Source: Eubacteriales bacterium
GTDB lineage: Bacteria; Bacillota; Clostridia; Oscillospirales; CAG-272
Assembly (NCBI GenBank): GCA_045577755.1
Contig: JAZNJA010000090.1
Coordinates: 2,144 to 66,143, forward strand
DNA: 64,000 bases
Reading direction: 5' to 3'
Position 1 is the first letter of the stretch. Each line of letters opens with the position of its first letter. Below are positions 21,899 to 63,735 of this stretch, piece by piece. A program made the translations under genes and the position numbers. The notes beneath the pieces were generated by a model. The model did no database searches, was not told the DNA's origin, and saw nothing but the letters and a program-made list of their open reading frames with translations.

Positions 21899-22008
21899 AA
21901 GATACAAAGATACAAGATACGAGATACAAGATAGAGGCGGTTCTCCGGCCATTTTCTATCTTGTATCTTGTATCTGCCGAGCCCTGCTCGGCGTGTATCT
22001 TGTATCTC
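21899..22008. repeat. GATACAA heptad repeats arranged as a long palindrome
   Basis: Left arm GATACAAAGATACAAGATACGAGATACAAGATAG. Right arm CTATCTTGTATCTTGTATC. An embedded GC hairpin GCCGAGC-CCT-GCTCGGC, then TATCTTGTATC again. Confidence 0.7.
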
Positions 22009-22021
22009 TTTTTGTCCTATT

Positions 22022-24538
22022 TTATTTTTTCAGCCCCAGTCTCTCGGCGGCCTCTTCCCTCATCTTGTACTTGAGGATCTTACCCGCGGCGTTCATGGGG
22101 AACTTCTCCACGAAGTCGATATAGCGGGGCACCTTGTGGCGGGCCATGTGGTCCAGGATGTACTGCTTCATCTCCTCCACGGTCATGGTCTCACCCTCAC
22201 GGAGGATGATGCAGGCCATGATCTCCTCGCCGTACTGCTTATCGGGCACGCCGATGACCTGGACGTCCCGCACCTTGGGATGGGTGTAGATGAACTCCTC
22301 GATCTCCTTGGGGTAGATGTTCTCACCGCCACGGATGATCATGTCCTTCAGGCGGCCCGTGATGAGGTAGTTCCCGTCGGGACGGCGGCAGGCCAGGTCA
22401 CCCGTGTGGAGCCAGCCGTCGTCGTCGATGGTCTCGGCGGTGGCGGCGGGCATCTTGTAGTAGCCCTTCATGATGTTGTAGCCGCGGGCCACGAACTCAC
22501 CGTTGACCCCGTCGGGGCAGTCCAGACCCGTCTCGGGGTCGATGATCTTGCACTCCACGTTGGCAAAGGCGGAGCCCACGGTCTCGGTGCGGACCTCCAG
22601 GCTGTCGTAGTAGCTGGACATGGTACAGCCGGGGGCGGCCTCGGTCTGACCGTAGACCGACACGATCTCCCGCATATTCATGACCTCGGGCTGTGCGGCC
22701 TTCTTCATCAGATCCGCGGGGCAGTTGGCGCCCGCCATGATGCCGATTCTCATGTAGGAGAAGTCGGTCTTGGCAAAGTCCTCGTGCTGCATCATAGCGA
22801 TGAACATGGTGGGCACGCCGTTGAAGGCGGTGATGTGCTCGTTGTGGACGCAGGCCAGAGCGGGCTTGGGGGAGAAGTAGGGCAGGGGGTACATGGTGGT
22901 ACCGTGGGTCATGGAGGCGGTCATGGACAGCACCATGCCGAAGCAATGGAACATGGGGACTTGGATCATCATGCGATCGGCGGTGGACAGCTCCATGTGG
23001 TCGCCGATGTACTTACCGTTGTTGACCACGTTGTAGTGGGTCAGCATGACGCCCTTGGGGAAGCCCGTGGTGCCCGAGGTGTACTGCATATTGCAGACGT
23101 CGTCCTTGTGAACGGCGGCGGCCATGCGGTGGACCTCCTCCACAGGGACCTGGACTGAACGAGCCACAGCCTCGTGCCACTCCATACAGCCCTTCTGGCG
23201 GTAGCCTACGGTGATGACGTTGCGCAAGAAGGGCAGACGGCGGGCGTGGAGGGGGGTGCCGGGGCGGAGGGTCTCCAGCTCGGGGCAAAGCTCGGCCACG
23301 ATCTTACCGTAATGGCAGTCCTTGGCTCCCTCGGTCATGATGAGGGTATGGGTATCCGACTGGCGGAGCAGGTACTCCACCTCGTGGATCTTGTAGGCGG
23401 TATTGACGGTGACCAGCACCGCGCCCAGCTTGACGGTAGCCCAGAAGGCGATGTACCACTGGGGGACGTTGGAGGCCCAGACCGCCACGTGGGTACCGGC
23501 CTTCACACCCATGGAGATCAGGGCGCGGGCGAAGGTGTCCACGTCGTCGCGGAACTCGGAATAGGTGCGGGTGTAGTCCAGGGTGGTATACTTGAAGGCG
23601 TACTGATCGGGGAACTCCTCCACCATGCGGTCCAGCACCTGGGAGAAGGTGAGATCAATGAGCTGATCCTTTTCCCAGACGTACTCGCCCGTGTGAGCGC
23701 GGTTGAAGTAGAGGGTGCGGCGCTTCTTGGAGGGATCGTCAAACTGCTTCATGAAGCTGCCGAACTGGGAGAGGATGATCTCCATATCATCCAGCTCCTC
23801 GCACCACCGGGGATCCCAGACCAGGGAGATGTAGCCGTCGTAGTTCACCGAGCGCAGAGCCAGCATGATCTCGGAGATGGGCAATTCACCCTCGCCCGCC
23901 AGGCAGAACTCCAGGCCGTCCTCGGTTCTGCGGGTGTCGCAGAAGTGGACGTGACGGACGTAGGCACCCAGATTCTTGATGATCTCCTCGGGAGTCTCAC
24001 CGCCACCGAAGTTGGCGGCGGACAGCTGCCACAGAGCGCCGAAGCTGTCGCTGGCAAAGCGGTCCAAGAGGTCGCGGAGGGCCACCGACTTGCAGAACAG
24101 ACCCGAGGTCTCCATGAGGAGACACACCCCGCCTGCCTCGGCCTCGGGGAGGACACGGGCAATCAGAGCGGCCACGTTCTCGATGGCGGCCTCCACCTCT
24201 CCCTCGGGAGCGGCGGCGGTGCGGAGACGGATATTGGGGATATGGAGGCTCTCCGCCACGTCCATGCAATGGAGGATCTCGGCCTCGGCCTCGGCAGCGG
24301 TGGCAGCGTCCGAGGGATCAATGAGGCAGTCAATACAGGGGACGGTCAGCTTCTTCTCATAGAGACGGCGGAGGGTAGCGGCGGCGGCATAGTCGTAAAA
24401 CGCGCCGTCACGGCTGACGAACATGGGGCCGTGGATGTTGTGGATCTCCACGCCGGCATAGCCCAGAGAGGAGGCCATGTCGCAGAACTCGTCGAAGGTA
24501 TGATTATGCCACCCTTTGGTGGAAAAAGAGAGTTTCAT
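22022..24538 (-). CDS. fusion protein: N-terminal xylose-isomerase-like TIM barrel (sugar phosphate isomerase/epimerase family) plus C-terminal AMP-dependent acyl-CoA synthetase/ligase (838 aa)
   Basis: Residues 1-~275, MKLSFSTKGWHNHTFDEFCDMASSLGYAGVEIHN..., look like an AP_endonuc_2-type barrel. From about residue 290: FadD-like adenylating enzyme (YTSGTTGFPKGVMLTH, GEFVARGYNIMKGYY, TGDL, PMNAAGKILK). Confidence 0.85.
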   Translation of the reverse strand: MKLSFSTKGWHNHTFDEFCDMASSLGYAGVEIHNIHGPMFVSRDGAFYDYAAAATLRRLYEKKLTVPCIDCLIDPSDAATAAEAEAEILHCMDVAESLHIPNIRLRTAAAPEGEVEAAIENVAALIARVLPEAEAGGVCLLMETSGLFCKSVALRDLLDRFASDSFGALWQLSAANFGGGETPEEIIKNLGAYVRHVHFCDTRRTEDGLEFCLAGEGELPISEIMLALRSVNYDGYISLVWDPRWCEELDDMEIILSQFGSFMKQFDDPSKKRRTLYFNRAHTGEYVWEKDQLIDLTFSQVLDRMVEEFPDQYAFKYTTLDYTRTYSEFRDDVDTFARALISMGVKAGTHVAVWASNVPQWYIAFWATVKLGAVLVTVNTAYKIHEVEYLLRQSDTHTLIMTEGAKDCHYGKIVAELCPELETLRPGTPLHARRLPFLRNVITVGYRQKGCMEWHEAVARSVQVPVEEVHRMAAAVHKDDVCNMQYTSGTTGFPKGVMLTHYNVVNNGKYIGDHMELSTADRMMIQVPMFHCFGMVLSMTASMTHGTTMYPLPYFSPKPALACVHNEHITAFNGVPTMFIAMMQHEDFAKTDFSYMRIGIMAGANCPADLMKKAAQPEVMNMREIVSVYGQTEAAPGCTMSSYYDSLEVRTETVGSAFANVECKIIDPETGLDCPDGVNGEFVARGYNIMKGYYKMPAATAETIDDDGWLHTGDLACRRPDGNYLITGRLKDMIIRGGENIYPKEIEEFIYTHPKVRDVQVIGVPDKQYGEEIMACIILREGETMTVEEMKQYILDHMARHKVPRYIDFVEKFPMNAAGKILKYKMREEAAERLGLKK

Positions 24539-24563
24539 GGTAATTTCCTGCTTTCAGAAAGGA

Positions 24564-25946
24564 TCAGACGGACTGCTCGAAGACAATCTTGTTGACGGCG
24601 CTGAGGTAGGCGCGAATGGAAGCACCGATGATGTCGGTGGAGATACCCGTACCGGCGTAGAGCTTGCCCTCGGCGCGAAGCTTCACCAGAGCCGAGCCCA
24701 TGGCCTCCTTGCCCTCGGTGACGGCCTGGATCTGGAAATCGTCCAGCTCAAAGTGACATCCCATGATCTGCTCCAGCGCCTTGATCGCGGCGTCGATGGG
24801 GCCGTCTCCCATGGAGATGCCCTGGAGCTGCTCTCCCTTCTTGTCCAGCACGATCTGGGCAGAGGCGGCGAGAGCGTTTCCGCCCGAGCTGTTGACCATG
24901 TAGCTGACCAGCGTGTAGGTGGGAGGCACCTGCATAGCCACGCCCGAGACAATGGCCTCCAGCTCCTTGGCCCCCACGGTCTTCTTGGCGGCCACGCGGA
25001 CGAACTCGTTGTACACGGCCTCCACGTCCTCCTCGGACAGGTCGTAGCCCAGCTTGGCCACGGCGGCGGATACGGCATCCTTGTCATCCTGAGCGTCCAG
25101 AGTAAAGCCGCTCTCGGAGGGGGAGGCGATATTGACCGAAGCGGCGCGGTCGATGCCCTTCCCCGCTACCACGCGGGAGATCTGGCGGAGGATGCGGTGG
25201 TACTCGGTGAGCTGGAGCCCTGCGGTGAAGCCGTAGTGGTTGCCGCAGTTGCGGATGATGCCGCAGAAGTCCTCCAGAGACACGCAGGCGCCCTCCACGG
25301 CGGTCTTGACGGTGTCGGCACCCATGCGGACGGCCAGGATGGCGGCGGCGGCGGCCATGGCGTTCTTGTCATCGCAGGAGACCCCCACGGGGACGGTCAC
25401 GGTGTCCATGACCCCCTTCACGAAGGCGGCGAACTCATCGGGCATCTTCTCCCCCGTGCTGTCGCAGACGGTAACGGCGGTAGCCCCCGCCTCCACGGCG
25501 GCGGTGAGGACGGCGGTCAGGAAGGCGGGCTCGGCGCGGGTGGCATCCACGGCGCAGAACTCCACGTCGGCGCAGACCGCCTTGGCTTTCGCCACGGTAG
25601 CGGAGACCCACTCGATCATCTTGGGAGGCTTCTTATGGGCGCTATACTCCATGCCCACGGGGGACACGGGCACCTCCACGCGGAGGCGGGGGTGCTTGGC
25701 GGCGGAGATCGCCTGTACAGCGTGGTCGAAGCTCTCGGCGGTCATGCCCACGCAGACCGACAAGACACCGGCCCCCGCGAAGGAGGAGGCGGTGCGGACG
25801 AAGAGGATATCGGTCTTGGGGTTATCAATGGCGGGCAGCTCGATGACGTCTACCTTCAGCTTTTCCAGCTGGCGGCAGATCTCGATCTTTTCCTTGAAGC
25901 TGAAGGCGCAGTTTTCACGGCACAGGGTACGGTCGGCGATTCTCAT
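24564..25946 (-). CDS. 2-isopropylmalate synthase/homocitrate synthase-family protein with degenerate catalytic motifs and an intact LeuA-type C-terminal regulatory domain (460 aa)
   Basis: HMGL-like barrel plus LeuA_dimer-like C-terminus (GDGPIDAAIKALEQI...AVTEGKEAMGSALVKL). The N-terminal motif is IADRTLCRENC rather than DTTLRDGEQ, and VSCDDKNAMAAA replaces the HxHND metal site. Confidence 0.8.
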   Translation of the reverse strand: MRIADRTLCRENCAFSFKEKIEICRQLEKLKVDVIELPAIDNPKTDILFVRTASSFAGAGVLSVCVGMTAESFDHAVQAISAAKHPRLRVEVPVSPVGMEYSAHKKPPKMIEWVSATVAKAKAVCADVEFCAVDATRAEPAFLTAVLTAAVEAGATAVTVCDSTGEKMPDEFAAFVKGVMDTVTVPVGVSCDDKNAMAAAAAILAVRMGADTVKTAVEGACVSLEDFCGIIRNCGNHYGFTAGLQLTEYHRILRQISRVVAGKGIDRAASVNIASPSESGFTLDAQDDKDAVSAAVAKLGYDLSEEDVEAVYNEFVRVAAKKTVGAKELEAIVSGVAMQVPPTYTLVSYMVNSSGGNALAASAQIVLDKKGEQLQGISMGDGPIDAAIKALEQIMGCHFELDDFQIQAVTEGKEAMGSALVKLRAEGKLYAGTGISTDIIGASIRAYLSAVNKIVFEQSV

Positions 25947-25974
25947 GGGAAGTCTCCTTATTCAAATTATATTG

Positions 25975-26051
25975 GGGCTCTGCCCCAAGCCCCGCACGAA
26001 ACCCTTTTTGAAAAAAGTGTTTCGTGGCTTCCCAAAAACTTTTGGAAAAGG
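25975..26051. repeat. intergenic palindromic repeat, family 2, between the T-box terminator and the start codon
   Basis: GGGGCTCTGCCCC; hairpin CACGAAAC...GTTTCGTG enclosing CTTTTTGAAAAAAG; CCCAAAAACTTTTGG. Related modules at 1561-1590 and 27635-27744. Confidence 0.4.
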
Positions 26052-26079
26052 CTCTTGCAGAGTTATGAAACGTATGACC

Positions 26080-26350
26080 AAAACAAAAACCCCGAATGTA
26101 CAAACGTACATCCGAGGACGAAATTCATTCGCGGTACCACCTCGGTTATCTCAAAGCGAGATCACCTTATCGGAGCCCATCAGCTCCTCTGTCTTGTAAC
26201 GGGACAAACCGGAGAGACTTACTTCTTTCGGTTGGGTCTCTCTGCTCGGGAATGAGACTTACTTCACCCTCTCTATCGGCTCGCACCAACCGCCGACTCT
26301 CTGAAAGCAGGACAGGCAAAGAATAATTCCTTCATTGCATTTCTGTGATG
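26080..26350 (-). promoter_or_regulatory. T-box riboswitch leader 1 (inferred Leu specifier CUC)
   Basis: Minus-strand RNA has AGAGAG, a distal loop GGUUGGUGCGA, the T-box sequence GGUGGUACCGCG (26142..26131), and a terminator CCUCGGAUGUAC-GUUU-GUACAUUCGGGG followed by UUUUUGUUUU (26117..26080). Specifier slot CUC-A at 26256..26253. Confidence 0.8.
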
Positions 26351-26356
26351 TGGTGT

Positions 26357-26385
26357 ATTATAGCACACTTTTCCCTCTTTGTCAA
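26357..26385 (-). promoter_or_regulatory. consensus sigma-A promoter driving T-box 1
   Basis: Minus strand: TTGACA, 17 nt, TGC-TATAAT (extended -10). Confidence 0.7.
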
Positions 26386-26446
26386 GGGGTTTCGCGATAT
26401 TTTCGGCAACTTTTTATCCAAGTAAAATGTATTTGATGGAGAAAGG

Positions 26447-26472
26447 AAAACCGCGCCACAAGGCGCGGTTTT
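26447..26472. terminator. rho-independent terminator after ilvE (symmetric A/T flanks)
   Basis: AAAACCGCGCC-ACAA-GGCGCGGTTTT. Confidence 0.75.
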
Positions 26473-26487
26473 CGCGTAGAAAATTGA

Positions 26488-27552
26488 TCAGTCGATAGCC
26501 AGAGTCCAACCGAACTTGTCCTCGATCTTGCCCCACTGGATACCCGTCAGAGTATCGTACAGGTGCTGGGTGACCTCGCCGATCTTGCCACCGTTTACGG
26601 TGTACTTCTTATCCTTGTAGCACAGCTCGCCGATGGGAGAGACCACGGCGGCGGTACCGGTGCCCCAGGCCTCCTCCAGGGTGCCGTTCTCCATGGCCTC
26701 GGCCAGCTCGTCCACGCTGATGAGACGCTCGCTGACCTTGTAGCCCTCGGAGCGCAGGACCTCCAGGCAGGACATACGGGTGATACCGGGCAGGATGGAG
26801 CCCGAGAGCATGGGGGTCACGATCTCGCCACCTATTTTGAACATGACGTTCATGGCGCCCACCTCCTCGATGTACTTGCGGTGGACACCGTCCAGCCACA
26901 GCACCTGGGCATAGCCCTTCTTCTCGGCGCGTGCACCGGCACGGTTGGAGGCGGCGTAGTTACCGCCGCACTTGGTGTAGCCCGTACCGCCCTTGACGGC
27001 TCGGACGTCCTCGTCCTCGATCATGATACCAACGGGGTTGATGCCCTCCTTGTAGTAGCTGCCCACAGGAGAGGCGATGATCATGAAGGTGGTGTGATGG
27101 ACGGCGTGCACACCCAGGGTCTCGTCGTTACCGAACATCAGGGGACGGAGGTAAAGAGAGGTACCGGGGGCGGAGGGAGTCCAATCCTGCTCCATGTTCA
27201 CGAAGGCGGTCAGCACCTCCATGCCCAGCTCCTCGGGGATCTCGGGCAGGCACAGACGCTCGGCGGAGCGGTTCAGACGGCGGATGTTCTCAATGGGGCG
27301 GAAGAGCTGGACCTTACCGTCGGTGCGGCGGTAGGCCTTCAGACCCTCGAAGATCTCGGAGCCGTAGTGCAGGACCGTAGCGGCGGGATGGAGGGACAGG
27401 TTGCCGAAGGGGACGATGCGGGCGTCGTACCAGCCACGCTCGGGCTCGTACTCCATGAGGAACATATGGTCGGTAAAGATCTTACCGAAGCCCAGGGTGG
27501 AAGCGTCGGGCTTCTCCTTGGGGCAGGCGGTCTTGGTGATGGAAATATTCAT
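26488..27552 (-). CDS. ilvE: branched-chain amino acid aminotransferase
   Basis: 354 aa, class IV aminotransferase. LGFGKIFTDHMF, EGLKAYR, GGTGYTKCGGNYAAS. Confidence 0.92.
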   Translation of the reverse strand: MNISITKTACPKEKPDASTLGFGKIFTDHMFLMEYEPERGWYDARIVPFGNLSLHPAATVLHYGSEIFEGLKAYRRTDGKVQLFRPIENIRRLNRSAERLCLPEIPEELGMEVLTAFVNMEQDWTPSAPGTSLYLRPLMFGNDETLGVHAVHHTTFMIIASPVGSYYKEGINPVGIMIEDEDVRAVKGGTGYTKCGGNYAASNRAGARAEKKGYAQVLWLDGVHRKYIEEVGAMNVMFKIGGEIVTPMLSGSILPGITRMSCLEVLRSEGYKVSERLISVDELAEAMENGTLEEAWGTGTAAVVSPIGELCYKDKKYTVNGGKIGEVTQHLYDTLTGIQWGKIEDKFGWTLAID

Positions 27553-27634
27553 GACGGTGATTCCCTTTCATGTATGATTACCGAATGGGGCAGGGGCCCC
27601 ATGGGGGTTGCCAATATCCTTACGGGTATCGACT

Positions 27635-27744
27635 TTTTCCCAAGTACTTTTTTGAAAGTTTTGGGGATCCTTAAGGGACTTTTCTCAAAAGTCCCTTAAG
27701 CGGGTCAAGGGCAGAGCCCTTGTGGGGGGCAGGGGCAAAGCCCC
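27635..27744. repeat. intergenic palindromic repeat, family 2, between the oxidoreductase gamma gene and ilvE
   Basis: TTTTCCCAAGTACTTTTTTGAAAGTTTTGGGG; perfect hairpin CTTAAGGGACTTTT-CTC-AAAAGTCCCTTAAG (27670-27700); GGGCAGAGCCC; GGGGCAGGGGCAAAGCCCC. Confidence 0.45.
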
Positions 27745-27761
27745 TCGTTCTCCCGTTCTCC

Positions 27762-28295
27762 TCAGTAGTTCGCACCCAGCTCCAGAGCCTTGTAGTTCAG
27801 CTCCAGCATATCGGCGCGCTTGGCGGAGATGACCTTGGCGAGGGCGGCGTTGACGCCCTCCTCGTTGTACTCGCCCAGAGCGGCCAGAATCTTGCCCACC
27901 AGGATCATATTGCCCAGGGTGGGGATACCGTTCTCACCGGCCATGCGGGTGGCGGGGATGGCGTAGGCCTTGACGTCGGTGCGCTTCAGGGGGCGCTCGA
28001 TGAGGGAGGAATCGTAGAAGATCATGCCGCCCTTCTTGACGGCGGCCTCGTAGCGATCCAGAGAAGGCAGATTCATGGCCACCAGCACGTCGGGCTTAGC
28101 CACGATGGGAGAGCCCACCGCGCCGTCGGAGATGATGATGCCGCAGCTGGCGGTACCGCCGCGCATCTCGGGGCCGTAGGAGGGGAGCCAGCTCACGTTC
28201 TTGCCCTCGGTCAGGCCCTTGTAGGCTATGAACTTACCTGCGAACAGGATGCCCTGTCCGCCGAAGCCGGAAAAGAGAAATTCCTTGGTACTCAT
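27762..28295 (-). CDS. 2-oxoacid:ferredoxin oxidoreductase, gamma subunit
   Basis: 177 aa. [14 protein letters not shown] motif. Abuts the beta gene. Confidence 0.88.
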
Positions 28296-29063
28296 TTAGT
28301 TTTCCTCCTTCTTGGCTGCCTCGGCAGCGGCGGTTCTGTCCTTGTACACGCCCAGAGGGTAGTAGGGGATCATCTTGTCGTCGATCCACTTCAACGCCGC
28401 CTGGGGAGTCATGCCCCAGTTGGTGGGGCAGGTAGAAAGGACCTCGATCAGCGAGAAGCCCTTGCCCTCCACCTGATTCCGGAAGGCTTTCTTGATGGCC
28501 TTCTTGGCGTTGCGGATCTGCTTGACGTTATTCACGGTGACGCGCTCCAGATACTCGGGGCCGTCCAGGGTGGCCAGCATCTCGCAGACGCGGATGGGGA
28601 AACCGCACTGCTTGACGTCACGGCCGTAGGGGGAGGTCTGGGTCACCTGACCGGGCAGGGAGGTGGGGGCCATCTGACCGCCGGTCATGCCGTAAATGGC
28701 GTTGTTGACGAAGATGACGGTGATGTTCTCGTTACGGGCGGCGGCGTGGACCGTCTCGGCCATACCGATGGAGGCCAGGTCGCCGTCACCCTGGTAGGTG
28801 AAGACGATGCTGTCGGGCAGGGCGCGCTTGACACCCGTAGCGATGGCGGGAGCGCGGCCGTGGGCGGCCTCGATCATATCGCAGTTGAAGTAGTTGTAGG
28901 CCATGACCGAGCATCCCACAGGGGCGATGCCGATGGCGTTACCTTCGATCCCCAGCTCGTCCATGACCTCGGCCACCAGACGGTGGATGATACCGTGGGT
29001 ACAGCCGGGGCAGTAGTGGAAGGGGATATCGTTCAGGGCATGAGGTTTATCGAAAACGACCAT
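28296..29063 (-). CDS. 2-oxoacid:ferredoxin oxidoreductase, beta (TPP-binding) subunit
   Basis: 255 aa. YCPGCTHG and GDGD...NN TPP-binding motifs. Confidence 0.9.
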   Translation of the reverse strand: MVVFDKPHALNDIPFHYCPGCTHGIIHRLVAEVMDELGIEGNAIGIAPVGCSVMAYNYFNCDMIEAAHGRAPAIATGVKRALPDSIVFTYQGDGDLASIGMAETVHAAARNENITVIFVNNAIYGMTGGQMAPTSLPGQVTQTSPYGRDVKQCGFPIRVCEMLATLDGPEYLERVTVNNVKQIRNAKKAIKKAFRNQVEGKGFSLIEVLSTCPTNWGMTPQAALKWIDDKMIPYYPLGVYKDRTAAAEAAKKEEN

Positions 29064-30136
29064 TAGTTGTTACCTCCGATTCTGGCGGCGGTCTCCTTGA
29101 TGCTCTCCAGCACCTGCTCGGGGGAGGGGATCATACCGCCGACGCGGTTGCAAAGGGTGACGGGGGCCTTGCCCTCGGTGGCCAGCATCACGTCCTCGAT
29201 CATCTGACCCATGGACAGCTCCACCGAAATGTAGGCCTTACAGGTAGCCAAAGAATCCTTGAACGCCTTCTTGGGGAAGGGCCACAGGGTGATGGGACGG
29301 ATCATGCCCACCTTGATGCCCATCTCGCGGGCGGCGTCCACGGCGTTGCGGGAGACGCGGGAGGCGATGCCGAAGGCGGCGATGCAGATCTCGGCATCCT
29401 CCATGCGGTAGGTCTCGTACATGACCTCGTTCTCTTCAATCACCTTGTAGCGCTCGTAGCGGGCAAAGTTCAGCTCCTCCAGCTCCTCGGGAACCAGGGA
29501 CAGGGAGTTGACGATGTTGTGGACGCGCTCCAGCTTGGTGCCGGTGGTAGCCCAGGGCTTCTCGATCTTCTCGCCCACCTTCAGGGCGTCCAGAGCCACA
29601 GGCTCCATCATCTGACCCATGGTACCGTCGGCAAGGATCATGGAGGTCATGCGGTACTTGTCGGCCAGATCGAAGCCGTGGACGGTGAGCTCGGCCATCT
29701 CCTGCACAGAGGAGGGGGCCAGGACGATCATGTGGAAGTCACCGTGACCGCCGCCCTTGGTGGCCTGGAAGTAGTCGGCCTGGGAGGGCTGGATACCGCC
29801 GAGACCGGGGCCGCCGCGCTGGACGTTGACCACCAGAGAAGGCAGATCAGCGCCCGCCAGGTAGGACAGACCCTCGCTCTTGAGGGAGATTCCGGGGGAG
29901 GAGGAGGATGTCATGACACGGGTGCCGGTGGAGGCCACGCCGTAGACCATGTTGATGGCCGCGACCTCGGACTCTGCCTGGAGGAACACGCCGCCGATCT
30001 TGGGCAGCCGCTTGGCCATGTAGGCCGCGATCTCGGTCTGGGGGGTGATGGGGTAACCGAAGTAGTGGCGGCAGCCCGCGATGATGGCGGCCTCCGCGAT
30101 GGCCTCGTTACCCTTCATAAGTACCTTATCTGCCAT
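29063..30136 (-). CDS. 2-oxoacid:ferredoxin oxidoreductase, alpha subunit (VorB/KorA-like)
   Basis: Start trimmed to MADKVLMKGNEAIAEAAIIAGCRHYFGYPITPQTEI (AAAGGAGAG RBS). 357 aa. Confidence 0.9.
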   Translation of the reverse strand: MADKVLMKGNEAIAEAAIIAGCRHYFGYPITPQTEIAAYMAKRLPKIGGVFLQAESEVAAINMVYGVASTGTRVMTSSSSPGISLKSEGLSYLAGADLPSLVVNVQRGGPGLGGIQPSQADYFQATKGGGHGDFHMIVLAPSSVQEMAELTVHGFDLADKYRMTSMILADGTMGQMMEPVALDALKVGEKIEKPWATTGTKLERVHNIVNSLSLVPEELEELNFARYERYKVIEENEVMYETYRMEDAEICIAAFGIASRVSRNAVDAAREMGIKVGMIRPITLWPFPKKAFKDSLATCKAYISVELSMGQMIEDVMLATEGKAPVTLCNRVGGMIPSPEQVLESIKETAARIGGNN

Positions 30137-30141
30137 GTCGG

Positions 30142-30360
30142 TCACTCTCCTTTCTCTACCTTGATGATGCAGTCGGGGCACATGGTGGCGCAGAAGGCGC
30201 AACCAATGCAGGCCTCGATGTTCTCTGCCACCACGGGGTGGTGACCCTTCTTGTTGATCTGATCCTCAGCCAGTGCCAGCACGTGCTTGGGGCAGACGTC
30301 CACGCAAAGGCCGCAGCCCTTGCAGTTGTCGGTTTTGAAGGTCAATTTACATTTTGCCAT
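30142..30360 (-). CDS. 2-oxoacid:ferredoxin oxidoreductase, delta subunit (2x[4Fe-4S] ferredoxin)
   Basis: Start trimmed to MAKCKLTF (AAGGAG RBS). CKGCGLCVDVCP and CIGCAFCATMCP cluster motifs. 72 aa. Confidence 0.88.
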   Translation of the reverse strand: MAKCKLTFKTDNCKGCGLCVDVCPKHVLALAEDQINKKGHHPVVAENIEACIGCAFCATMCPDCIIKVEKGE

Positions 30361-30429
30361 ATGTTTACTCCTTGTTTCATTGAGCAAATTACACGGAATT
30401 ATTGGGACGGCACCCGCCTTCACGGATCC

Positions 30430-30536
30430 GTCATCCTGAGCGGAACGGAGCGCAGCGGAGTGCAGTCGAAGGATCTCTTCTTCCCCACAAGAGATCCTTC
30501 GGCTACGCGCGCGTCACGCGCTTTGCTCAGGATGAC
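30430..30536. repeat. palindromic module shared with the core of the 1284-1457 element
   Basis: GTCATCCTGAGCGG...GTCGAAGGATCTC / GAGATCCTTCGGC...GCTCAGGATGAC. Same arms as 1326-1422 but without the outer terminal repeats. Confidence 0.6.
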
Positions 30537-30568
30537 TCTTACCGGATCGGGGCATGATTTGAAGAGAA

Positions 30569-31237
30569 TCAAAGATACTTGTTTTTCTGCAGGCCCAGGG
30601 GGAACGCATTCGGCACCTTCCCTGCCACGGCGGGGTACAGCTCCTGTCTCACGGTGGTCATGACCACGGGAAGACCCGAAAGGCCGCTGACCTCCTCGGC
30701 GTAGGCCCCGGAGGCGAGGATATCCTCGGCGGTGGTCATGGCACCCAAGTTGGAGTTGTTGATCAACCCCGTGAAGCGGATGCCCCCCGCGAACTCGATC
30801 TCCCGCAGGACCTCCATGGTGGAGGCGGCGTCGCGGGTGAGAGGGCGGTAGCAGTTGATGACCATGAGCATCTCATAGTCGTTCTCCAAAAGGATCTTGG
30901 GAGCCAGACGGCCCAGCACCAAAGCTCCGCGGTCATCGCCGCCGATATCCAGGACGGCGGTCATGGAGCGGTCGTCGGTGAGGGCGTACATCTCCTGGGG
31001 AAGGGCGGGGATATCCACGTTACTGTTGGCGTAGGCCGAGCAGATGAGGCGGATGCCCTGCTGTTCAAAGAAGGCCGCGCTGTCCTTGGTGCGGAAGTAG
31101 GGGTTGACGATATCCAGATCCGCCACGGTGACGGTGTCGCGGGACTTCTTCAGCTCGGCGGCGATGTTCACCGCCACGTTGGTCTTGCCGCTGCCGTAGT
31201 GGCCGCAGAGGATGGTCAAGCGTTTGAGGGGATACAT
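30569..31237 (-). CDS. P-loop NTPase of the MinD/ParA/CooC-like (SIMIBI) type, 222 aa
   Basis: Start at MYPLKRLTILCGHYGSGKTNVAVNIA (deviant Walker A), GGGAGG RBS 7 nt upstream. 14 nt after the synthetase stop. Confidence 0.75.
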   Translation of the reverse strand: MYPLKRLTILCGHYGSGKTNVAVNIAAELKKSRDTVTVADLDIVNPYFRTKDSAAFFEQQGIRLICSAYANSNVDIPALPQEMYALTDDRSMTAVLDIGGDDRGALVLGRLAPKILLENDYEMLMVINCYRPLTRDAASTMEVLREIEFAGGIRFTGLINNSNLGAMTTAEDILASGAYAEEVSGLSGLPVVMTTVRQELYPAVAGKVPNAFPLGLQKNKYL

Positions 31238-31251
31238 GAGGTTGCCTCCCA

Positions 31252-33579
31252 TCACAGCTTATTGCGCTGGATCTTACCGCTGGTGGTCTTGGGCAGCTCG
31301 TCGCGGAAGACCACGATACGGGGATACTTGTAGGGGGCGGTGCGCTCCTTGACGTAGCGCTGGATCTCGCGCTTCAGCTCCTCGGTAGGCTCGGTTCCCT
31401 TCACCAGCACGATGGAGGCCTTGACCACCTGGCCGCGGACCTCGTCGGGCTCGGCGGAAACGCCGCACTCCAGGACGAAGGGCAGCTCCATGATGACAGA
31501 CTCGATCTCAAAGGGCCCGATGCGGTAGCCCGAGGACTTGATGACGTCGTCCACGCGGCCAACGAACCAGTAGAAGCCGTCCTCGTCCTTCCAGGCGGTA
31601 TCACCGGTATGGTAGTAGCCGTCGTGCCAGACCTCGGCGGTCTTGTCGGGAGCGTTGTAGTAGCCGGTGAACAGACCGCAGGGGGCGCCGTCAGCCACGC
31701 GGATGCAGATCTCGCCCGTCTCACCCACGGGAACGGGCTTACCGTCGGCATCCTGCAGTTCCACCTCGTAGATGGGGGCAGGCTTACCCATGGAGCCGAT
31801 CTTGTGGGGGGCGCCGGTGAGGTTACCGATGATCATGGTGGACTCGGACTGACCGAAGCCCTCCAGGATCTGGAGTCCCGTGGCCTTCTCGAACTGGCGG
31901 TAGACCTCGGGGTTGAGGGCCTCGCCCGCGGTGGTCATGTGGCGCACCGAGGAGAGGTCGTACTTGGAGATATCCTCCTTCACCATCATGCGGAGCATGG
32001 TGGGAGGGGCGCAGAAGGTGGTGATCTGGTGCTTGGCGAACATAGGAAGAATATCCGCCGCGTCGAAGCGGTCGAAATCGTAGACGAAGGTGGCCGCCTC
32101 GCAAAGCCACTGTCCGTAGAGCTTACCCCACATGGACTTGGCCCAGCCCGTGTCGGAGATGGTCAAATGGAGACCGTCGGGATGGACGTTGTGCCAGTAG
32201 CGGGCGGTATGGAAGTGACCCAGGGGGTACTTGTGGTTGTGAGCCGCGATCTTGGGGTAGCCCGAGGTGCCCGAGGTGAAGAACATGAGGAGCAGATCGT
32301 CGCCGCAGGGGGAGTCCTCGGTGCGGTTGAAGTGGGAGGAGAACAGGGTGTACTCCTCGTCAAAGGTACGCCAGCCCTCTCGCTCGCCGTTCACAATGAT
32401 CTTGTGCTTGAGGGTAGGACAATGCTCGGCGGCCAGATCCACCTGATGGGCGGTGTCGCCGTCGGCGGTGCAGAGGATAGCCGAGACACCCGCGGAGTTG
32501 AAGCGGTACTCGAAGTCATGCTCCTGGAGCTGGTTGGTAGCGGGGATGGCGATGGCACCCAGCTTATTCAGACCCAGCATGGCGAACCAGAACTGGTAGT
32601 GGCGCTTCAGCACCAGCATGACGCGGTCGCCCTTCTTGATGCCCAGGGACTTGAAGTAGTTAGCGCACTGGGCGGAGGCCCGCTTCATGTCCTTGAAGGT
32701 GAAGCGACGCTCGGTGTGATCGCGGGAGACGTGGAGCATGGCCAGTTTCTCAGGATCCTTCTCGGCCACGGCGTCCACCAGGTCGAAGGCGAAGTTGAAC
32801 TTATCGGTGTTCTTGAAGGTAATGGAGGTAGGCGTACCAAGAGCGTTCTCGGTGACGTCGATGAACTTACGCCAGACGCGGTCGCTCTGCTGGTCGCGGT
32901 GGACCGTGGTCTCCTTCTTGGTGGCGGGGACCGCCTCGGTGGGAGCCAACTCGGGAATAGGCTCGCCCGTGGGGTTGAGGACGATGGCGTAGAACACGCA
33001 GTCCTGACCGCCCACGGCGATCATACCGTGAGGGGTATCGGAATCGTAGTAGATGGTATCGCCCGCGCTGAGCACCTCGGTATGCTCGCCCACCTGGACC
33101 ATGAGCTTACCCTCGATGACGATATCCAGCTCCTGCCCCGCGTGGGTGGTCAGCTCGATGTCGCGGTGCTGGGCCTCCTCGGAGTAGGCGGAGCGCACGA
33201 ACAGAGGCTCGGCAATACGGTTCTGGAAGGCGTAGGCCATGTTGTAGTACACCATGCCGTGGGCCTTGGCGATCTCCTGCCCCGCACCCGCGCGGGTGAC
33301 GGTGTAGGACTTCAGCTTGGGGCTGTAGCCTTCAATAATTTCGGTGACGTTGACGTTCAGCGCCAGGGCGCAACGGTAGATGAACGCGAAGTTGAGGTCG
33401 CTCTGACCGCTCTCGCAGAGGAGGTACTCCTCCACCGACACGCCGGTCTTGGCGGCCATCTGCTGGGGCTCCAGCCCCTCGATCTCACGGAGGGCGCGGA
33501 TTCGACCCGCCATCTCCTTGATCTTAAAATCCAATCCGGACATGGAGGAGGGCTCCATCGTTTTGGTTATCTGATCCAT
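31252..33579 (-). CDS. fusion protein: XRE-type HTH plus cupin plus AMP-forming acyl-CoA synthetase (775 aa), paralog 1
   Basis: Start trimmed to MDQITKT (GAAAGGA RBS). HTH (LEPQQMAAKTGVSVEEYLLCESGQ). Cupin (HAGQELDIVIEGKLMVQVGE...GDTIYYDSDTPHGM). Synthetase (FFTSGTSGYPKIA, TGDTAWKDEDGFYWFVGRVDDVIKSSGYRIGPFEIES, PKTTSGKIQR). Confidence 0.88.
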   Translation of the reverse strand: MDQITKTMEPSSMSGLDFKIKEMAGRIRALREIEGLEPQQMAAKTGVSVEEYLLCESGQSDLNFAFIYRCALALNVNVTEIIEGYSPKLKSYTVTRAGAGQEIAKAHGMVYYNMAYAFQNRIAEPLFVRSAYSEEAQHRDIELTTHAGQELDIVIEGKLMVQVGEHTEVLSAGDTIYYDSDTPHGMIAVGGQDCVFYAIVLNPTGEPIPELAPTEAVPATKKETTVHRDQQSDRVWRKFIDVTENALGTPTSITFKNTDKFNFAFDLVDAVAEKDPEKLAMLHVSRDHTERRFTFKDMKRASAQCANYFKSLGIKKGDRVMLVLKRHYQFWFAMLGLNKLGAIAIPATNQLQEHDFEYRFNSAGVSAILCTADGDTAHQVDLAAEHCPTLKHKIIVNGEREGWRTFDEEYTLFSSHFNRTEDSPCGDDLLLMFFTSGTSGYPKIAAHNHKYPLGHFHTARYWHNVHPDGLHLTISDTGWAKSMWGKLYGQWLCEAATFVYDFDRFDAADILPMFAKHQITTFCAPPTMLRMMVKEDISKYDLSSVRHMTTAGEALNPEVYRQFEKATGLQILEGFGQSESTMIIGNLTGAPHKIGSMGKPAPIYEVELQDADGKPVPVGETGEICIRVADGAPCGLFTGYYNAPDKTAEVWHDGYYHTGDTAWKDEDGFYWFVGRVDDVIKSSGYRIGPFEIESVIMELPFVLECGVSAEPDEVRGQVVKASIVLVKGTEPTEELKREIQRYVKERTAPYKYPRIVVFRDELPKTTSGKIQRNKL

Positions 33580-33610
33580 GTTTGATCCTTTCTCGGGTGT
33601 CGCGAGGCGC

Positions 33611-33920
33611 ACCAAAAGCAAAGCAAGCGCACCCGTCCCAAAGTTTCGTTACTTTGAGACGAGTGCGCATAAATCATTTATACAGCACCCGCGGTACCAC
33701 TCAAATTGCGGAAAGCTCCGCCACTCAGTCGGGTCCATCAACCCGTAGACACTAACGCGGTCTGACTCGGAGCGGGTCTACTCTCACGGGATTTTTCCCA
33801 CGGTGATTTCTTCCGCTCGGCTCGGGAGCTACAAATACCGCGACCGTGTCGGTAGCTTACACCAACCGCTACCTCTCTTTGGACCGTGCCGTGGCATCCT
33901 CTCCGTCAATGCCTTTGATA
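33611..33920 (-). promoter_or_regulatory. T-box riboswitch leader 2 (inferred Val specifier GUA)
   Basis: AGAGAG, then GUAGC-GGUUGGUGUAA-GCUAC. T-box AAUUUGAGUGGUACCGCG. Terminator GCGCACUCGUCUCAAAGU...ACUUUGGGACGGGUGCGC followed by UUGCUUUGCUUUU. Specifier slot GUA-G at 33832..33829. Confidence 0.8.
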
Positions 33921-33926
33921 CAGATA

Positions 33927-33955
33927 ATTATAACACAACTTTGTTTGTTTGTCAA
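33927..33955 (-). promoter_or_regulatory. consensus sigma-A promoter driving T-box 2
   Basis: Minus strand: TTGACA, 17 nt, TGT-TATAAT. Confidence 0.7.
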
Positions 33956-34035
33956 TTATTTTATTTGGGTAAAACCACGCAAAATTTCCTGTCATGACAA
34001 GTAATTTTTTGTAGTATTTCACACCTTCCCGCGGC

Positions 34036-36369
34036 TTACAGCTTGTTGCGCTGGATCTTGCCGCTGATGGTCTTGGGCAGCTCGTCGCGGAAGACCACGA
34101 TACGGGGGTACTTGTAGGGAGCGGTGTTCTTCTTGACGTAGTTCTGGATCTCCTTCTTCAGCTCCTCGGTGGGCTCGGTACCCTTCACCAGGACGACGGA
34201 GGCCTTGACCACCTGGCCGCGGACCTCGTCGGGCTCGGCGGACACACCGCACTCCAGGACGTAGGGCAGCTCCATGATGACAGACTCGATCTCGAAGGGC
34301 CCGATGCGGTAGCCCGAGGACTTGATCACGTCGCCCACGCGGCCCACGTACCAGTAGAAGCCGTCCTCATCGCACCAAGCGGTGTCGCCGGTATGGTAGT
34401 AGCCGTCGTGGAGGACCTCGTCGGTCTTCTCCTGGTTGCGGTAGTAACCCAGGAAGAGGCCGCAGGGAGCCTTGTCGCCCACCTTGATGACGATCTCGCC
34501 CGTCTCGCCGTCGGGGACGGGGTTGCCGTCGGGATCCACCAGCATCATGTCGTACAGGGGCGAGGGCTTACCCATGGAGCCTACCTTGTGGGGATTGCCC
34601 ATGAGGTTGGCGATGGACAGGGTAGTCTCGGTCTGGCCGAAGCCCTCCTTGATCTGGAGGCCCGTAGCCTTCTCGAACTGGCGGTAGACCTCGGGGTTGA
34701 GGGCCTCGCCCGCGGTGGTCATGTGGCGGACAGAGGAGAAATCGTACTTGGAGATGTCCTCCTTGATCATCATGCGGAGCATGGTGGGAGGCGCGCAGAA
34801 GGTGGTGATCTGGTACTTGGCAAACATGGGGAGGATCACCGAGGCGTCGAAGCGGTCGAAGTCGTAGGTGAAGACCGCGCCCTCGGCCAGCCACTGACCG
34901 TAGAGCTTGCCCCACAGAGCCTTGCCCCAGCCCGTATCCGAGATGGTGAAGTGGAGGCCGTCCTCGCTCACACCGTGCCAGTACTTGGCGGTGATGTAGT
35001 GGCCCAGAGCGTACTTGTAGCTGTGGGCGGCGATCTTGGGATAGCCCGTGGTGCCCGAGGTGAAGAACATGATCATGGGATCGTCACCGCAGGGGGTGTC
35101 GTCGCCGCGGTAGAAGTGAGCGGAATAGAGGGGGAACTCCTTGTCGAAGTTGCGCCAGCCCTCGCGGTCGCCGCCCACCAGGATCTTGGTCTTGAGGGAG
35201 GGAGACTCGACCTCGGCCAGCTCCACCTGACGGGCTACGTCACCGTCGGCGGTACAGACGATGGCAGACACCTCGGCGGCGTTGAAGCGGTACTCCAGAT
35301 CGTGCTTGACCAGCTGGTTGGTGGCGGGGATGGCGATGGCGCCCAGCTTATGGAGGCCCAGGATGGCGAACCAGAACTGGTAGTGGCGCTTGAGCACCAG
35401 CATGACGCGGTCGCCCTTTTGGATGCCCAGAGACTTGAAGTAGTTGGCGGCCTGGTTGGAGGCGCGCTTCATATCGTTGAAGGTAAAGCGGCGCTCCACC
35501 ATGTCGCGGGAGATGTGGAGCATGGCCAGCTTGTTGGGATCCCGCTTGGCGAGGGCGTCCACCACGTCGAAGGCGAAGTTGAACCGATCCTCGTTCTTGA
35601 AGGTGATCTTCTGCAAAGCCCCGTTCTCGTCCACCACGGTGTCGATGAAGGGGGTGGTGACCGTCTCGGTGGCGGGGAGCGCCTCGGTATGGACCTGGCG
35701 CAGAGTCTCCTGCACCAGCTCGGCAGACAGGGCGCTCTCACCGGGGAGGACCACCGCCATGAAAAGGCAATCCTGGCCGTCCACGGCGATCATACCGTGG
35801 GGGGTGGAGGAATTGTAGTAGATGCTGTCGCCGGCCTCCAGGTACTCCACGTTGGAGCCGACCTGGACCTTCAGCTTGCCCTCCAGCACGAAGTCGAACT
35901 CCTGACCCGCGTGCTTGACGAGATGGATGGGCTTGTTCTGCAGCTCGGGGTCGTACTCGTAGCGGACGCGGTAGGGCTCGGCGATCTTCTTGCGGAAGAG
36001 GGGGGCCACCGACATGATGCTGATGCCCGCCTCCTTGGCGGTCTCCTGGCCCTCGCCCTTGCGGGTGACGGTGTAGGAGGACAGATGGGCGGAGCGACCC
36101 TCCAAGAGATCGGTAATACCAATGCCGAAGGCCTGGGCGCACTTGTGGATGAATGTGAAGGGGAAGTCCAGCTCTCCCGCCTCGTAGGCCACGTAAGCGG
36201 CGTTGCTGACCTCGGTCTTCTCGGCCATCTCGGCTACGGTGAAGCCGCAGATATCACGCATCTCGCGGATACGGATCGCGACCTCCTGGAGCTTCGCCCG
36301 GTCGTTCGCTCGGGCATTGGCCGAAGCGGCGACCGTATCTACGGCATTCGTTCTTGTTTCTTTTGCCAT
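34036..36369 (-). CDS. fusion protein: XRE-type HTH plus cupin plus AMP-forming acyl-CoA synthetase (777 aa), paralog 2
   Basis: AAGGAGG RBS. Same architecture as 31252-33579. The C-terminal ~110 aa are nearly identical between the two. Confidence 0.88.
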   Translation of the reverse strand: MAKETRTNAVDTVAASANARANDRAKLQEVAIRIREMRDICGFTVAEMAEKTEVSNAAYVAYEAGELDFPFTFIHKCAQAFGIGITDLLEGRSAHLSSYTVTRKGEGQETAKEAGISIMSVAPLFRKKIAEPYRVRYEYDPELQNKPIHLVKHAGQEFDFVLEGKLKVQVGSNVEYLEAGDSIYYNSSTPHGMIAVDGQDCLFMAVVLPGESALSAELVQETLRQVHTEALPATETVTTPFIDTVVDENGALQKITFKNEDRFNFAFDVVDALAKRDPNKLAMLHISRDMVERRFTFNDMKRASNQAANYFKSLGIQKGDRVMLVLKRHYQFWFAILGLHKLGAIAIPATNQLVKHDLEYRFNAAEVSAIVCTADGDVARQVELAEVESPSLKTKILVGGDREGWRNFDKEFPLYSAHFYRGDDTPCGDDPMIMFFTSGTTGYPKIAAHSYKYALGHYITAKYWHGVSEDGLHFTISDTGWGKALWGKLYGQWLAEGAVFTYDFDRFDASVILPMFAKYQITTFCAPPTMLRMMIKEDISKYDFSSVRHMTTAGEALNPEVYRQFEKATGLQIKEGFGQTETTLSIANLMGNPHKVGSMGKPSPLYDMMLVDPDGNPVPDGETGEIVIKVGDKAPCGLFLGYYRNQEKTDEVLHDGYYHTGDTAWCDEDGFYWYVGRVGDVIKSSGYRIGPFEIESVIMELPYVLECGVSAEPDEVRGQVVKASVVLVKGTEPTEELKKEIQNYVKKNTAPYKYPRIVVFRDELPKTISGKIQRNKL

Positions 36370-36395
36370 GGTAGTGTCCTCCTTGGGATCGTTTA

Positions 36396-36687
36396 CGAAT
36401 AAAAAAACACACCTGCCTCAAAACACTTTGAGACGGGTGCATAACACTCGCGGTACCACTCAAATTGCGGAAAAGCTTCCGCCACTCTTCGGAATCCAAT
36501 AATTCCTATGCTCTCACGCGGCATCCACGGGAGTCTCTACTTTCATCCATGGGACGGGTTCAAGTCCTCCGGCTCGGAAGGGATGGGTCTCTCAGGGGAA
36601 TACCGTCTGCTCGCACCAACCGCCGACTCTCTGTACGCATCCGACCTTGACCGTCTTCGTCATAGCCTTTGTCTTTTTATTCGATTG
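36396..36687 (-). promoter_or_regulatory. T-box riboswitch leader 3 (inferred Ile specifier AUC)
   Basis: AGAGAG, then GGUUGGUGCGA loop. T-box AAUUUGAGUGGUACCGCG. Terminator hairpin followed by UUUUUUUAUU. Specifier slot AUC-C at 36584..36581. Confidence 0.75.
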
Positions 36688-36692
36688 CGCGT

Positions 36693-36721
36693 ATTATAGC
36701 ACAATTTCGTTGACTTGTCAA
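36693..36721 (-). promoter_or_regulatory. consensus sigma-A promoter driving T-box 3
   Basis: Minus strand: TTGACA, 17 nt, TGC-TATAAT. Confidence 0.7.
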
Positions 36722-55203: not shown

Positions 55204-55271
55204 GTTCCTTACCTTTCTGACGCTTTTCGGCGTATTTTCGACACAAATAAAAAAGTCCATGCGTAAACAGT

Positions 55272-55300
55272 ATTTTATCACATCGAGATGGATAATTCAA
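55272..55300 (-). promoter_or_regulatory. candidate sigma-A promoter of the giant protease/opp unit
   Basis: Minus strand: TTGAAT, 17 nt, TAAAAT, in an AT-rich divergent intergenic region. Confidence 0.45.
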
Positions 55301-55453
55301 GAGCAAATTGTAAACATATATCATTAATAATAAAAAATCCGGAAACCCCCTTGATTTTTTCCGAAGTTTGTGGTATGCTATACGATGTTGTTCTATGCTC
55401 CTTTGTAGCCCATCACATACATAGCGAACAAAATCCCTGATAGGAGAAAAAAC

Positions 55454-63536: not shown

Positions 63537-63735
63537 AAGTCCTCCTTGCTCCCGCGCGTCCACGCAACGCGACGGGTTCTTTATGCGGCGGAAGGCAGCT
63601 CCCGCCGGGGTGCTGTCTCATGACGGATACGCTCCTACAGGGAATCAGCCCGAGACCGGGATTCTGACTGGGTCACTTCATTATGCCATAGATCCGCGAA
63701 TATTGCAAGTGCTTTGTGTCCCGATTGCGCCGTAG

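Follow-up and report, generated by a model that had tools for sequence, protein, structure and literature searches.

A cluster of three T-box-controlled operons in gut Clostridia with a predicted role in making branched-chain amino acids from branched short-chain acids

The window described in this work is a stretch of 64,000 nucleotides (nt) from an Eubacteriales bacterium (assembly GCA_045577755.1, contig JAZNJA010000090.1, positions 2,144 to 66,143), and it contains three consecutive minus-strand units, each consisting of a promoter, a T-box leader and the genes behind it, whose leaders carry specifier codons for isoleucine (Ile), valine (Val) and leucine (Leu), respectively. It is likely, on the basis of the sequence comparisons described below, that these units constitute a three-operon salvage system, by which the branched short-chain acids abundant in the gut and rumen are turned into Ile, Val and, probably, Leu. 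An earlier note on this DNA, made by a model from the sequence alone, had proposed three such units and a pathway for making the branched-chain amino acids from branched fatty acids. All three units are present as laid out there (based on Rfam, Pfam, NCBIfam and a promoter scan), and the proposed salvage pathway gains support from the specifiers, the VorB match, the kinship of the ligases and the pairing of specifiers with genes, although the Leu unit had been read too simply. The Leu unit was also given as 22022-25946; both of the genes named are found there, but a third gene, for an amidohydrolase, was missed and the unit is therefore longer, so that the cluster spans from 21015 (not 22022) up to the Ile promoter at 36721. 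The features are as follows:

36693..36721 (-): Ile promoter, TTGACA-17-TATAAT with a TG extended -10, 12/12 match to consensus
36426..36672 (-): Ile T-box leader (RF00230), specifier AUC at 36584-36582, UGGU bulge, terminator at about 36407-36442
34036..36369 (-): helix-turn-helix (HTH)-cupin-acyl-CoA synthetase, Ile-type (Pfam HTH_3, Cupin_2, AMP-binding), predicted 2-methylbutyrate-CoA ligase
33927..33955 (-): Val promoter, 12/12 match to consensus with TG
33627..33918 (-): Val T-box leader (RF00230), specifier GUA at 33832-33830, UGGU bulge, 18-bp terminator at 33627-33668
31252..33579 (-): HTH-cupin-acyl-CoA synthetase, Val-type (Pfam HTH_3, Cupin_2, AMP-binding), predicted isobutyrate-CoA ligase
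30569..31237 (-): P-loop NTPase with Walker A motif GHYGSGKT, between the Val ligase gene and vorD; weak ParA/CbiA matches
30142..30360 (-): oxidoreductase delta subunit, 2x[4Fe-4S] ferredoxin-like (Pfam Fer4 families); start and ribosome-binding site read
29063..30136 (-): oxidoreductase alpha subunit, VorB-type (NCBIfam NF005507; Pfam POR_N, PFOR_II)
28296..29063 (-): oxidoreductase beta subunit, thiamine diphosphate binding (Pfam TPP_enzyme_C)
27762..28295 (-): oxidoreductase gamma subunit (Pfam POR)
26488..27552 (-): IlvE branched-chain amino acid aminotransferase (NCBIfam PRK13357), followed by a terminator at about 26445-26478
26357..26385 (-): Leu promoter, 12/12 match to consensus with TG
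26090..26344 (-): Leu T-box leader (RF00230), specifier CUC at 26256-26254, UGGU bulge, terminator at 26090-26117
24564..25946 (-): LeuA-like protein, HMGL-like barrel and LeuA_dimer domain (Pfam)
22022..24538 (-): fusion of an AP_endonuc_2 TIM barrel and an AMP-binding domain (Pfam), candidate isovalerate-CoA ligase
21015..21887 (-): Amidohydro_2 metal-dependent hydrolase, third gene of the Leu unit (Pfam, 1.5e-31)

For the alpha subunit, the TTG start in the list of open reading frames (ORFs) has been corrected to the ATG at 30136, and the terminator that the earlier note placed after ilvE is visible in the sequence, although absent from the list produced by the terminator scan.

In the pathway proposed for these genes, the Ile-type ligase would activate 2-methylbutyrate, the Val-type ligase isobutyrate and the TIM-fused ligase, probably, isovalerate. 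The acyl-CoAs would then be reductively carboxylated to 2-oxoacids by the four-subunit VorB-type 2-oxoacid:ferredoxin oxidoreductase, and these would be transaminated to the amino acids by IlvE. When one of the amino acids becomes scarce, the corresponding uncharged tRNA, viz. tRNA-Ile(GAU), tRNA-Val(UAC) or tRNA-Leu(GAG), would stabilise the antiterminator of the matching leader and the ligase for that amino acid would then be made; the shared oxidoreductase, IlvE and the P-loop NTPase would be controlled by the Val leader. In addition, the HTH-cupin domains and the LeuA-like regulatory protein may contribute product feedback. The substrates and the anabolic direction of the pathway are what we infer, the direction from the following considerations. 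T-boxes switch on supply genes when their cognate tRNA is uncharged, i.e. under starvation, AMP-forming ligases run toward acyl-CoA, and the 2-oxoacid:ferredoxin oxidoreductases are reversible. Thus, when the T-box logic is considered together with the AMP-forming ligases, IlvE and a reversible oxidoreductase, acid to amino acid would be the only coherent direction.

The identification of the leaders as T-boxes is based on matches to the Rfam covariance model RF00230, which in all three cases extend over model positions 1-219 of 219 and hence include Stem I with its K-turn and specifier loop, Stem III and the antiterminator. With 112.3 bits, the Leu leader (26111-26344) exceeds the gathering score of 93, and although the Val leader (33652-33918; 77.6 bits, E 1.4e-15) and the Ile leader (36426-36672; 78.1 bits, E 1e-15) fall under this score, they are far beyond chance. 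The three leaders, which the earlier note had read from the sequence, are thus full-length T-boxes. Each of them is preceded, at a distance of 8-10 nt, by the promoter sequence with a 12/12 match and extended -10 listed above (starting at 36721, 33955 and 26385); for comparison, shuffled sequence averages 4.2 sites with matches of at least 9/12. Each leader ends in a terminator hairpin and U-run, and as the 3' arm of the antiterminator and the 5' arm of this hairpin overlap, these leaders are classical transcription-attenuation T-boxes. All 150 of the aligned leaders described below have the UGGU bulge, in keeping with an A as the discriminator base of tRNA-Ile, tRNA-Val and tRNA-Leu. In the terminator scan, the Ile-type ligase gene has no terminator ahead of the Val promoter, and due to this, transcripts of the Ile unit should run into the Val leader. 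The Leu leader is separated from its gene by a longer spacer (about 140 nt, 25947-26089, from the terminator to the LeuA-like start) in comparison to 40-50 nt for the other two leaders, and this spacer holds two extra hairpins, at 25972-25993 and, AT-rich, at about 26010-26040.

The specifier codons, read from the cmscan alignments, are AUC (Ile), GUA (Val) and CUC (Leu), which are typical T-box specifiers for these amino acids, and in each window leader a single base, a helix of 4 bp and the K-turn strand CGAGC come next after the codon. In the Ile leader, however, the base following the codon is C where a purine is usual, and due to this the register of the Ile specifier needed comparative support. 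For this purpose, relatives were collected from sequences limited to one genome per species, using an alignment of both window ligases and four homologs as the query. At least 581 stretches encode a relative of the ligases, and the best 80 loci, all of which derive from metagenome-assembled genomes of gut, rumen or faecal Clostridia (labelled Acutalibacteraceae, Oscillospiraceae, Ruminococcaceae, Christensenella/Catabacter, Saccharofermentans and others), were retained for the locus comparisons. A Stem I covariance model (R1) built from the three window leaders, from which the pairs of the middle helix were omitted because its MAFFT register differed among the three, gave 164 matches across these loci, which come from different species, and 150 of the matches were aligned for the codon tally. 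The Ile-type ligase is preceded by AUC in 50/50 of the aligned leaders, whereas the Val-type ligase is preceded by GUA in 71/73 and by GUC in 2/73, and the LeuA-like gene by CUC in 22/23 and CUG in 1/23. Leaders outside this alignment read AUC (four), GUA (two), CUG (three) and CUC (two). Within the Ile leaders, AUC is invariant, whereas it may be followed by C (26), A (23) or G (2) and the bases ahead of it vary, and the constancy of AUC between variable flanks fixes the register of the Ile specifier. The control by tRNAs for the branched-chain amino acids suggested in the earlier note is thus supported, as the specifiers are for Ile, Val and Leu and not for other amino acids. Two observations on individual loci may be added here. 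In L061, two tRNA genes lie directly 5' of the Val T-box and ligase, with a flavin mononucleotide riboswitch at the edge of the locus (9345-9566, 1-108), and in L061 and L074 the LeuA-like gene has no T-box match upstream.

The second line of evidence is provided by the ligases themselves. The two HTH-cupin-ligases of the window are 69% identical, and in a neighbour-joining tree of 138 ligases all 50 AUC-linked proteins and none of the Val-linked ones form one clade, while all 74 Val-linked proteins and none of the Ile-linked ones form the other. The arrangement of one activating enzyme per T-box, also proposed in the earlier note, is therefore conserved, with the ligase tree splitting exactly by specifier. 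Two characterised enzymes are the nearest relatives of the ligase domains, viz. Macs of Methanosarcina acetivorans (PDB 3ETC; 620 bits, E 5e-185) and MbcS of Staphylococcus aureus, the best NCBIfam match of both proteins (426 and 432 bits); by these scores the proteins are relatives of MbcS and not equivalogs. Macs prefers 2-methylbutyrate (PMC10455477), and MbcS, whose role in S. aureus is in the priming of fatty acids with branched acyl-CoA primers for the membrane, selectively activates 2-methylbutyrate and isobutyrate and uses isovalerate very poorly (PMC10026030). With these two branched-acid-selective enzymes as the closest characterised relatives of the window ligases, this point of the earlier note's proposal is supported as well. 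The Ile and Val clades are cleanly separated by 11 positions, three of which are in the ligase domain (Val / Ile numbering):

Position 480 / 482, in the W-x-K segment: Ala in the Val type, Gly in the Ile type (as in Macs)
Position 483 / 485, in the W-x-K segment: Met in the Val type, Leu in the Ile type
Position 582 / 584, 3 residues after the GFGQ(S/T)E motif: Met in the Val type, Leu in the Ile type

Position 480 presumably corresponds to Val310 in the acetate pocket of Salmonella enterica Acs. At all three positions the Val type has the bulkier residue, which fits a pocket for a C4 acid (isobutyrate) in this type versus a C5 acid (2-methylbutyrate) in the Ile type. The tryptophan of the Macs pocket (Trp259), whose role has been described (PMC10455477), appears to be kept, the KYW of 3ETC aligning with RYW in the Val type and KYW in the Ile type when an offset in the numbering is assumed.

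The genes of the Val operon downstream of its ligase account for the remaining steps of the predicted pathway. The alpha subunit of the oxidoreductase passes the NCBIfam VorB model NF005507 (540 bits vs a cut-off of 399), but fails the models for OorA (235 vs 579 bits), PorA (89 vs 550 bits) and indolepyruvate oxidoreductase (IOR; 70 vs 651 bits) as well as that for the oxalate enzyme. The grouping with 2-oxoglutarate oxidoreductases (OGORs) or pyruvate oxidoreductases, which the earlier note had named as an outcome that would speak against its proposal, is thus not seen with these models. The set of subunits is complete by Pfam (Fer4 in delta, POR_N and PFOR_II in alpha, TPP_enzyme_C in beta and POR in gamma), and IlvE passes two equivalog cut-offs (PRK13357, 473 vs 307 bits; TIGR01123, 394 vs 250 bits). 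For the P-loop protein, sequence searches gave no match better than E 0.3 and its AlphaFold model is poor (predicted local distance difference test, pLDDT, 51); a role as a NifH-like electron-injecting ATPase was considered and rejected, as the protein has no conserved Cys. The spacer of 208 nt between the P-loop gene and vorD (30361-30568) contains nested inverted repeats, GTCATCCTGAGC...GCTCAGGATGAC and GGATCTCTT...AAGAGATCC. As the corresponding gap is 30-60 nt in most relatives, this region looks like a repeat element inserted within the Val operon.

The linkage of these genes is also seen in other species. When ten window proteins were compared by tblastn with the 80 loci, counting only the loci with enough flanking sequence, the oxidoreductase alpha and beta subunits were found in 43/51 loci, IlvE likewise in 43/51, the P-loop gene in 44/51, the second (Ile-type) ligase in 52/64 and the LeuA-like gene in 36/63. 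The genes for the LeuA-like protein and TIM-ligase move as a block, which many loci have downstream on the same strand while others (e.g. L027, L029, L036, L041 and L044) have it upstream and divergent, and ilvE is sometimes ahead of the P-loop gene (L015, L040 and L072). The persistence of the linkage through such rearrangements argues for a shared function. A lone Val-type ligase with a Val T-box is present in nine loci (L018, L022, L037, L042, L053, L069, L075, L078 and L079); these show no oxidoreductase, IlvE or second ligase nearby, and the partners may be elsewhere or absent.

A number of observations weigh against the salvage pathway as described above. With regard to the enzymes, both HTH-cupin-ligases are far under the equivalog cut-off for MbcS (426-432 vs 850 bits), the VorB model NF005507 is a subfamily model and not an equivalog, and for the delta, beta and gamma subunits no curated NCBIfam model reaches its cut-off. 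Further, a PDB search with the oxidoreductase found no 2-oxoisovalerate:ferredoxin oxidoreductase (VOR), the nearest structures being an unspecific 2-keto acid enzyme of Pyrococcus furiosus and OGORs. With regard to control, the oxidoreductase and IlvE are located behind the Val leader only, and due to this, starvation for Ile or Leu alone would have to rely on their basal expression. In one locus (L040), the leader (1250-1494, 121.5 bits) before a divergent pair of LeuA-like and TIM-ligase genes reads CCC (Pro). This is the sole exception to the pairing of specifiers with genes; CCC is one substitution away from CUC, and it could have arisen by a point change or by an error of assembly, or the unit could have been retargeted. 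Lastly, the simple pathway has no need of three components of the Leu unit, viz. the LeuA-like pseudoenzyme, the degenerate TIM barrel and the amidohydrolase, which is apparently active.

The two proteins that the earlier note had listed in the Leu unit belong to the families named there, but the LeuA-like protein proves to be catalytically degenerate and the TIM barrel lacks conserved metal ligands. The LeuA-like protein aligns to LeuA structures from residue 13 onward only and is far under all of the NCBIfam cut-offs for LeuA. It has TLCRENC in place of TLRDGEQ, SCDDK for HCHND and EGACVS at the position of GERAGN, and neither the window protein nor the orthologs of 37 loci have GERAGN, the metal-binding HxH or the Arg-Asp pair of TLRDGEQ. 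Its LeuA_dimer domain (PF08502, E 6e-30), however, is the best conserved part of the protein, with a median identity of 67% vs 52% for the barrel. Judged by these motifs, the protein cannot be a canonical Claisen-condensing enzyme, and it is most simply read as a pseudoenzyme which retains the leucine-binding domain. The TIM domain of the adjoining fusion protein has a xylose-isomerase-like fold (Pfam AP_endonuc_2, 2e-20; model pLDDT 77), for which Foldseek found only generic sugar epimerase/isomerase barrels at a template modelling score of about 0.7. It is fast-evolving (27-64% identity), and conservation within its Glu/Asp/His/Glu metal site is limited to the first Glu and one Asp and does not extend to the His residues or the last Glu. 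The ligase domain fused to it is PRK12583-like (638 bits vs a cut-off of 832) and only 26% identical to the Val-type ligase, and a PDB sequence search with the TIM-ligase found only generic ANL ligases and no branched-acid relative. In the amidohydrolase, the ligands HxH, H, H and D are intact. They are kept in 22 sequences, and as its gene immediately follows that of the TIM-ligase in 21 related loci, it belongs to the Leu operon; it matches no NCBIfam family, and its nearest PDB structure is the uncharacterised protein 3IRS. The spacer of 134 nt between the TIM-ligase stop and the amidohydrolase start contains, at 21900-22010, a long inverted repeat with GATACAA-like units and a GC hairpin (CGCCGAGCAGGGCTCGGC), the same spacer being 24-35 nt in most related loci.

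Given these extra proteins, the chemistry of the Leu unit is only half explained, and it needs to be considered whether only the Ile and Val units follow the simple route, with the Leu unit processing another Leu-related precursor, such as a conjugated, lactonised or modified acid, or serving another Leu-linked function. The conserved and adjoining amidohydrolase is in favour of this, as the carboxylation of isovalerate needs no hydrolase, and so is the fact that the TIM-fused ligase belongs to another family and has no characterised close relative. However, isovalerate carboxylation to Leu is classical rumen biochemistry, nearly all of the Leu-unit leaders carry a Leu specifier, and the unit remains beside the VOR/IlvE cluster across many arrangements. 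Further, a separate ligase, of another family, would be expected for isovalerate, since enzymes of the MbcS type use it poorly (PMC10026030). On balance, such a different role for the Leu unit is considered unlikely, and isovalerate is retained as the probable substrate of its ligase.

A different question is posed by the N-terminal modules of the Ile- and Val-type ligases, as the combination of HTH_3 and Cupin_2 is the architecture of PuuR-like repressors. Of the 11 positions that separate the two clades, the other eight are found within the N-terminal 250 residues (encoded at 32830-33579 and 35620-36369), in the HTH, in the linker and early in the cupin domain, which suggests that this module, too, discriminates between Ile and Val. 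These two observations would also be expected if the proteins were mainly ligand-responsive transcription factors of a BirA/PuuR-like kind, in which the ligase makes or senses the effector. However, the ligase domains are complete and highly conserved, with their high score to Macs, and the cluster is without any other ligase for C4/C5 alpha-branched acids. In addition, upstream of the leaders only the -35, the extended -10 and A-rich upstream elements are conserved, and no conserved operator for the HTH domains was seen there. It is thus improbable that regulation is the main function of these proteins, and they are better regarded as predicted acyl-CoA ligases carrying a sensor-like module. 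The least plausible of the alternatives, viz. that the genes function in the oxidative direction, degrading branched-chain amino acids to acyl-CoAs, or provide branched acyl-CoA primers for membrane fatty acids, could draw on the reversibility of the oxidoreductase and on the priming role of MbcS noted above, but it is highly improbable, as induction by an uncharged tRNA makes no sense for degrading that same amino acid, AMP-forming ligases spend ATP and cannot harvest energy from acyl-CoA, the exact pairing of Ile, Val and Leu specifiers with genes across species points to supply, and the cluster contains no genes for fatty acid synthesis.

Returning to the salvage of branched acids, an extension of this proposal may be put forward tentatively. 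Each ligase may be subject to two layers of sensing, one by a leader RNA responding to tRNA charging and the other by a product-sensing protein module, which would be the HTH-cupin for the Ile and Val ligases and, for the TIM-fused ligase, the LeuA pseudoenzyme with only its leucine-binding domain kept, docked on the TIM barrel. If this is true, then the biosynthetic enzyme LeuA has been recycled as a dedicated allosteric subunit of an unrelated ligase.

The genes flanking the cluster (NAGPA, opp-type ABC ATPases, an acyltransferase and a sigma factor) are unrelated to it, and within the 64,000-nt window there are no ilv/leu genes around the cluster and no tRNA genes. Elsewhere in the window, a Gut-1 RNA (RF01706), a small RNA family known from gut metagenomes only, is found at 63735-63809 (-) with 56.4 bits vs a gathering score of 50, and a very long ORF of 2967 amino acids (46378-55281, minus strand) is followed by one of 1073 amino acids at 55055-58276.

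Isobutyrate, isovalerate and 2-methylbutyrate are needed by, or beneficial to, fibre-degrading anaerobes of the rumen and gut, which has been known for 60 years and is made use of in ruminant feeding. The cluster described here would provide the genetic basis for this old observation, for which the gene set and its control have seemingly never been defined. The locus is widespread, as indicated by the number of ligase relatives found with one genome per species, and its proteins are named in the databases merely as 'AMP-binding protein' or 'hypothetical protein'. The T-box specifiers thus annotate three otherwise unnamed ligases, and the substrate predictions which follow are directly testable. 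In addition, the locus could serve as a marker for auxotrophy for branched-chain amino acids and for cross-feeding between protein fermenters and fibre degraders in the gut, and the pseudo-LeuA and HTH-cupin fusions are candidates for new allosteric modules.

With respect to known systems, the chemistry predicted here, from acid to acyl-CoA, 2-oxoacid and amino acid, is the same as in the reductive carboxylation of branched acids to branched-chain amino acids, which Allison and co-workers reportedly demonstrated by labelling in rumen anaerobes in the 1960s. Methanogens share this route, with an anabolic VOR in Methanothermobacter. The rumen or gut habitat is also in common; however, the earlier work dealt with fluxes and enzymes, whereas a gene cluster with three ligases under leaders of their own and accessory proteins is described here. 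In the aryl-acid salvage of Methanococcus maripaludis, an exogenous acid is likewise converted to a CoA thioester, reductively carboxylated and transaminated, but the substrates are aromatic, an IOR is used instead of a VOR-type enzyme and there is no T-box. The Ile- and Val-type ligase domains have MbcS and Macs as their best NCBIfam and PDB matches, but the window proteins have about 250 additional N-terminal residues that form the HTH-cupin module, are present as a pair of specialised paralogs, and are under T-box control, which ties them to the supply of amino acids and not of lipids. The leaders belong to the same riboswitch class as those of the Bacillus subtilis ilv-leu operon and aminoacyl-tRNA synthetase genes, with the same specifier, UGGN bulge and terminator/antiterminator; in contrast to ilv-leu, the pathway here would be one of salvage from fatty acids and not de novo synthesis, and three specifiers divide a single pathway. 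Lastly, the LeuA-like protein shares the HMGL-like barrel and LeuA_dimer domain of 2-isopropylmalate synthase (LeuA), and its gene is behind a Leu T-box, but the window protein and its orthologs are without the catalytic motifs. Full-text literature searches found no description of a cluster joining T-boxes, VOR and branched-acid ligases, in agreement with the view of the earlier note that this organisation lacks a prior description. Pathway, riboswitch class and enzyme families are each known from earlier work; what appears to be new is their combination, in which three specifiers divide salvage by substrate, the ligases are fused to sensor-like domains and a pseudo-LeuA is present beside the Leu ligase.

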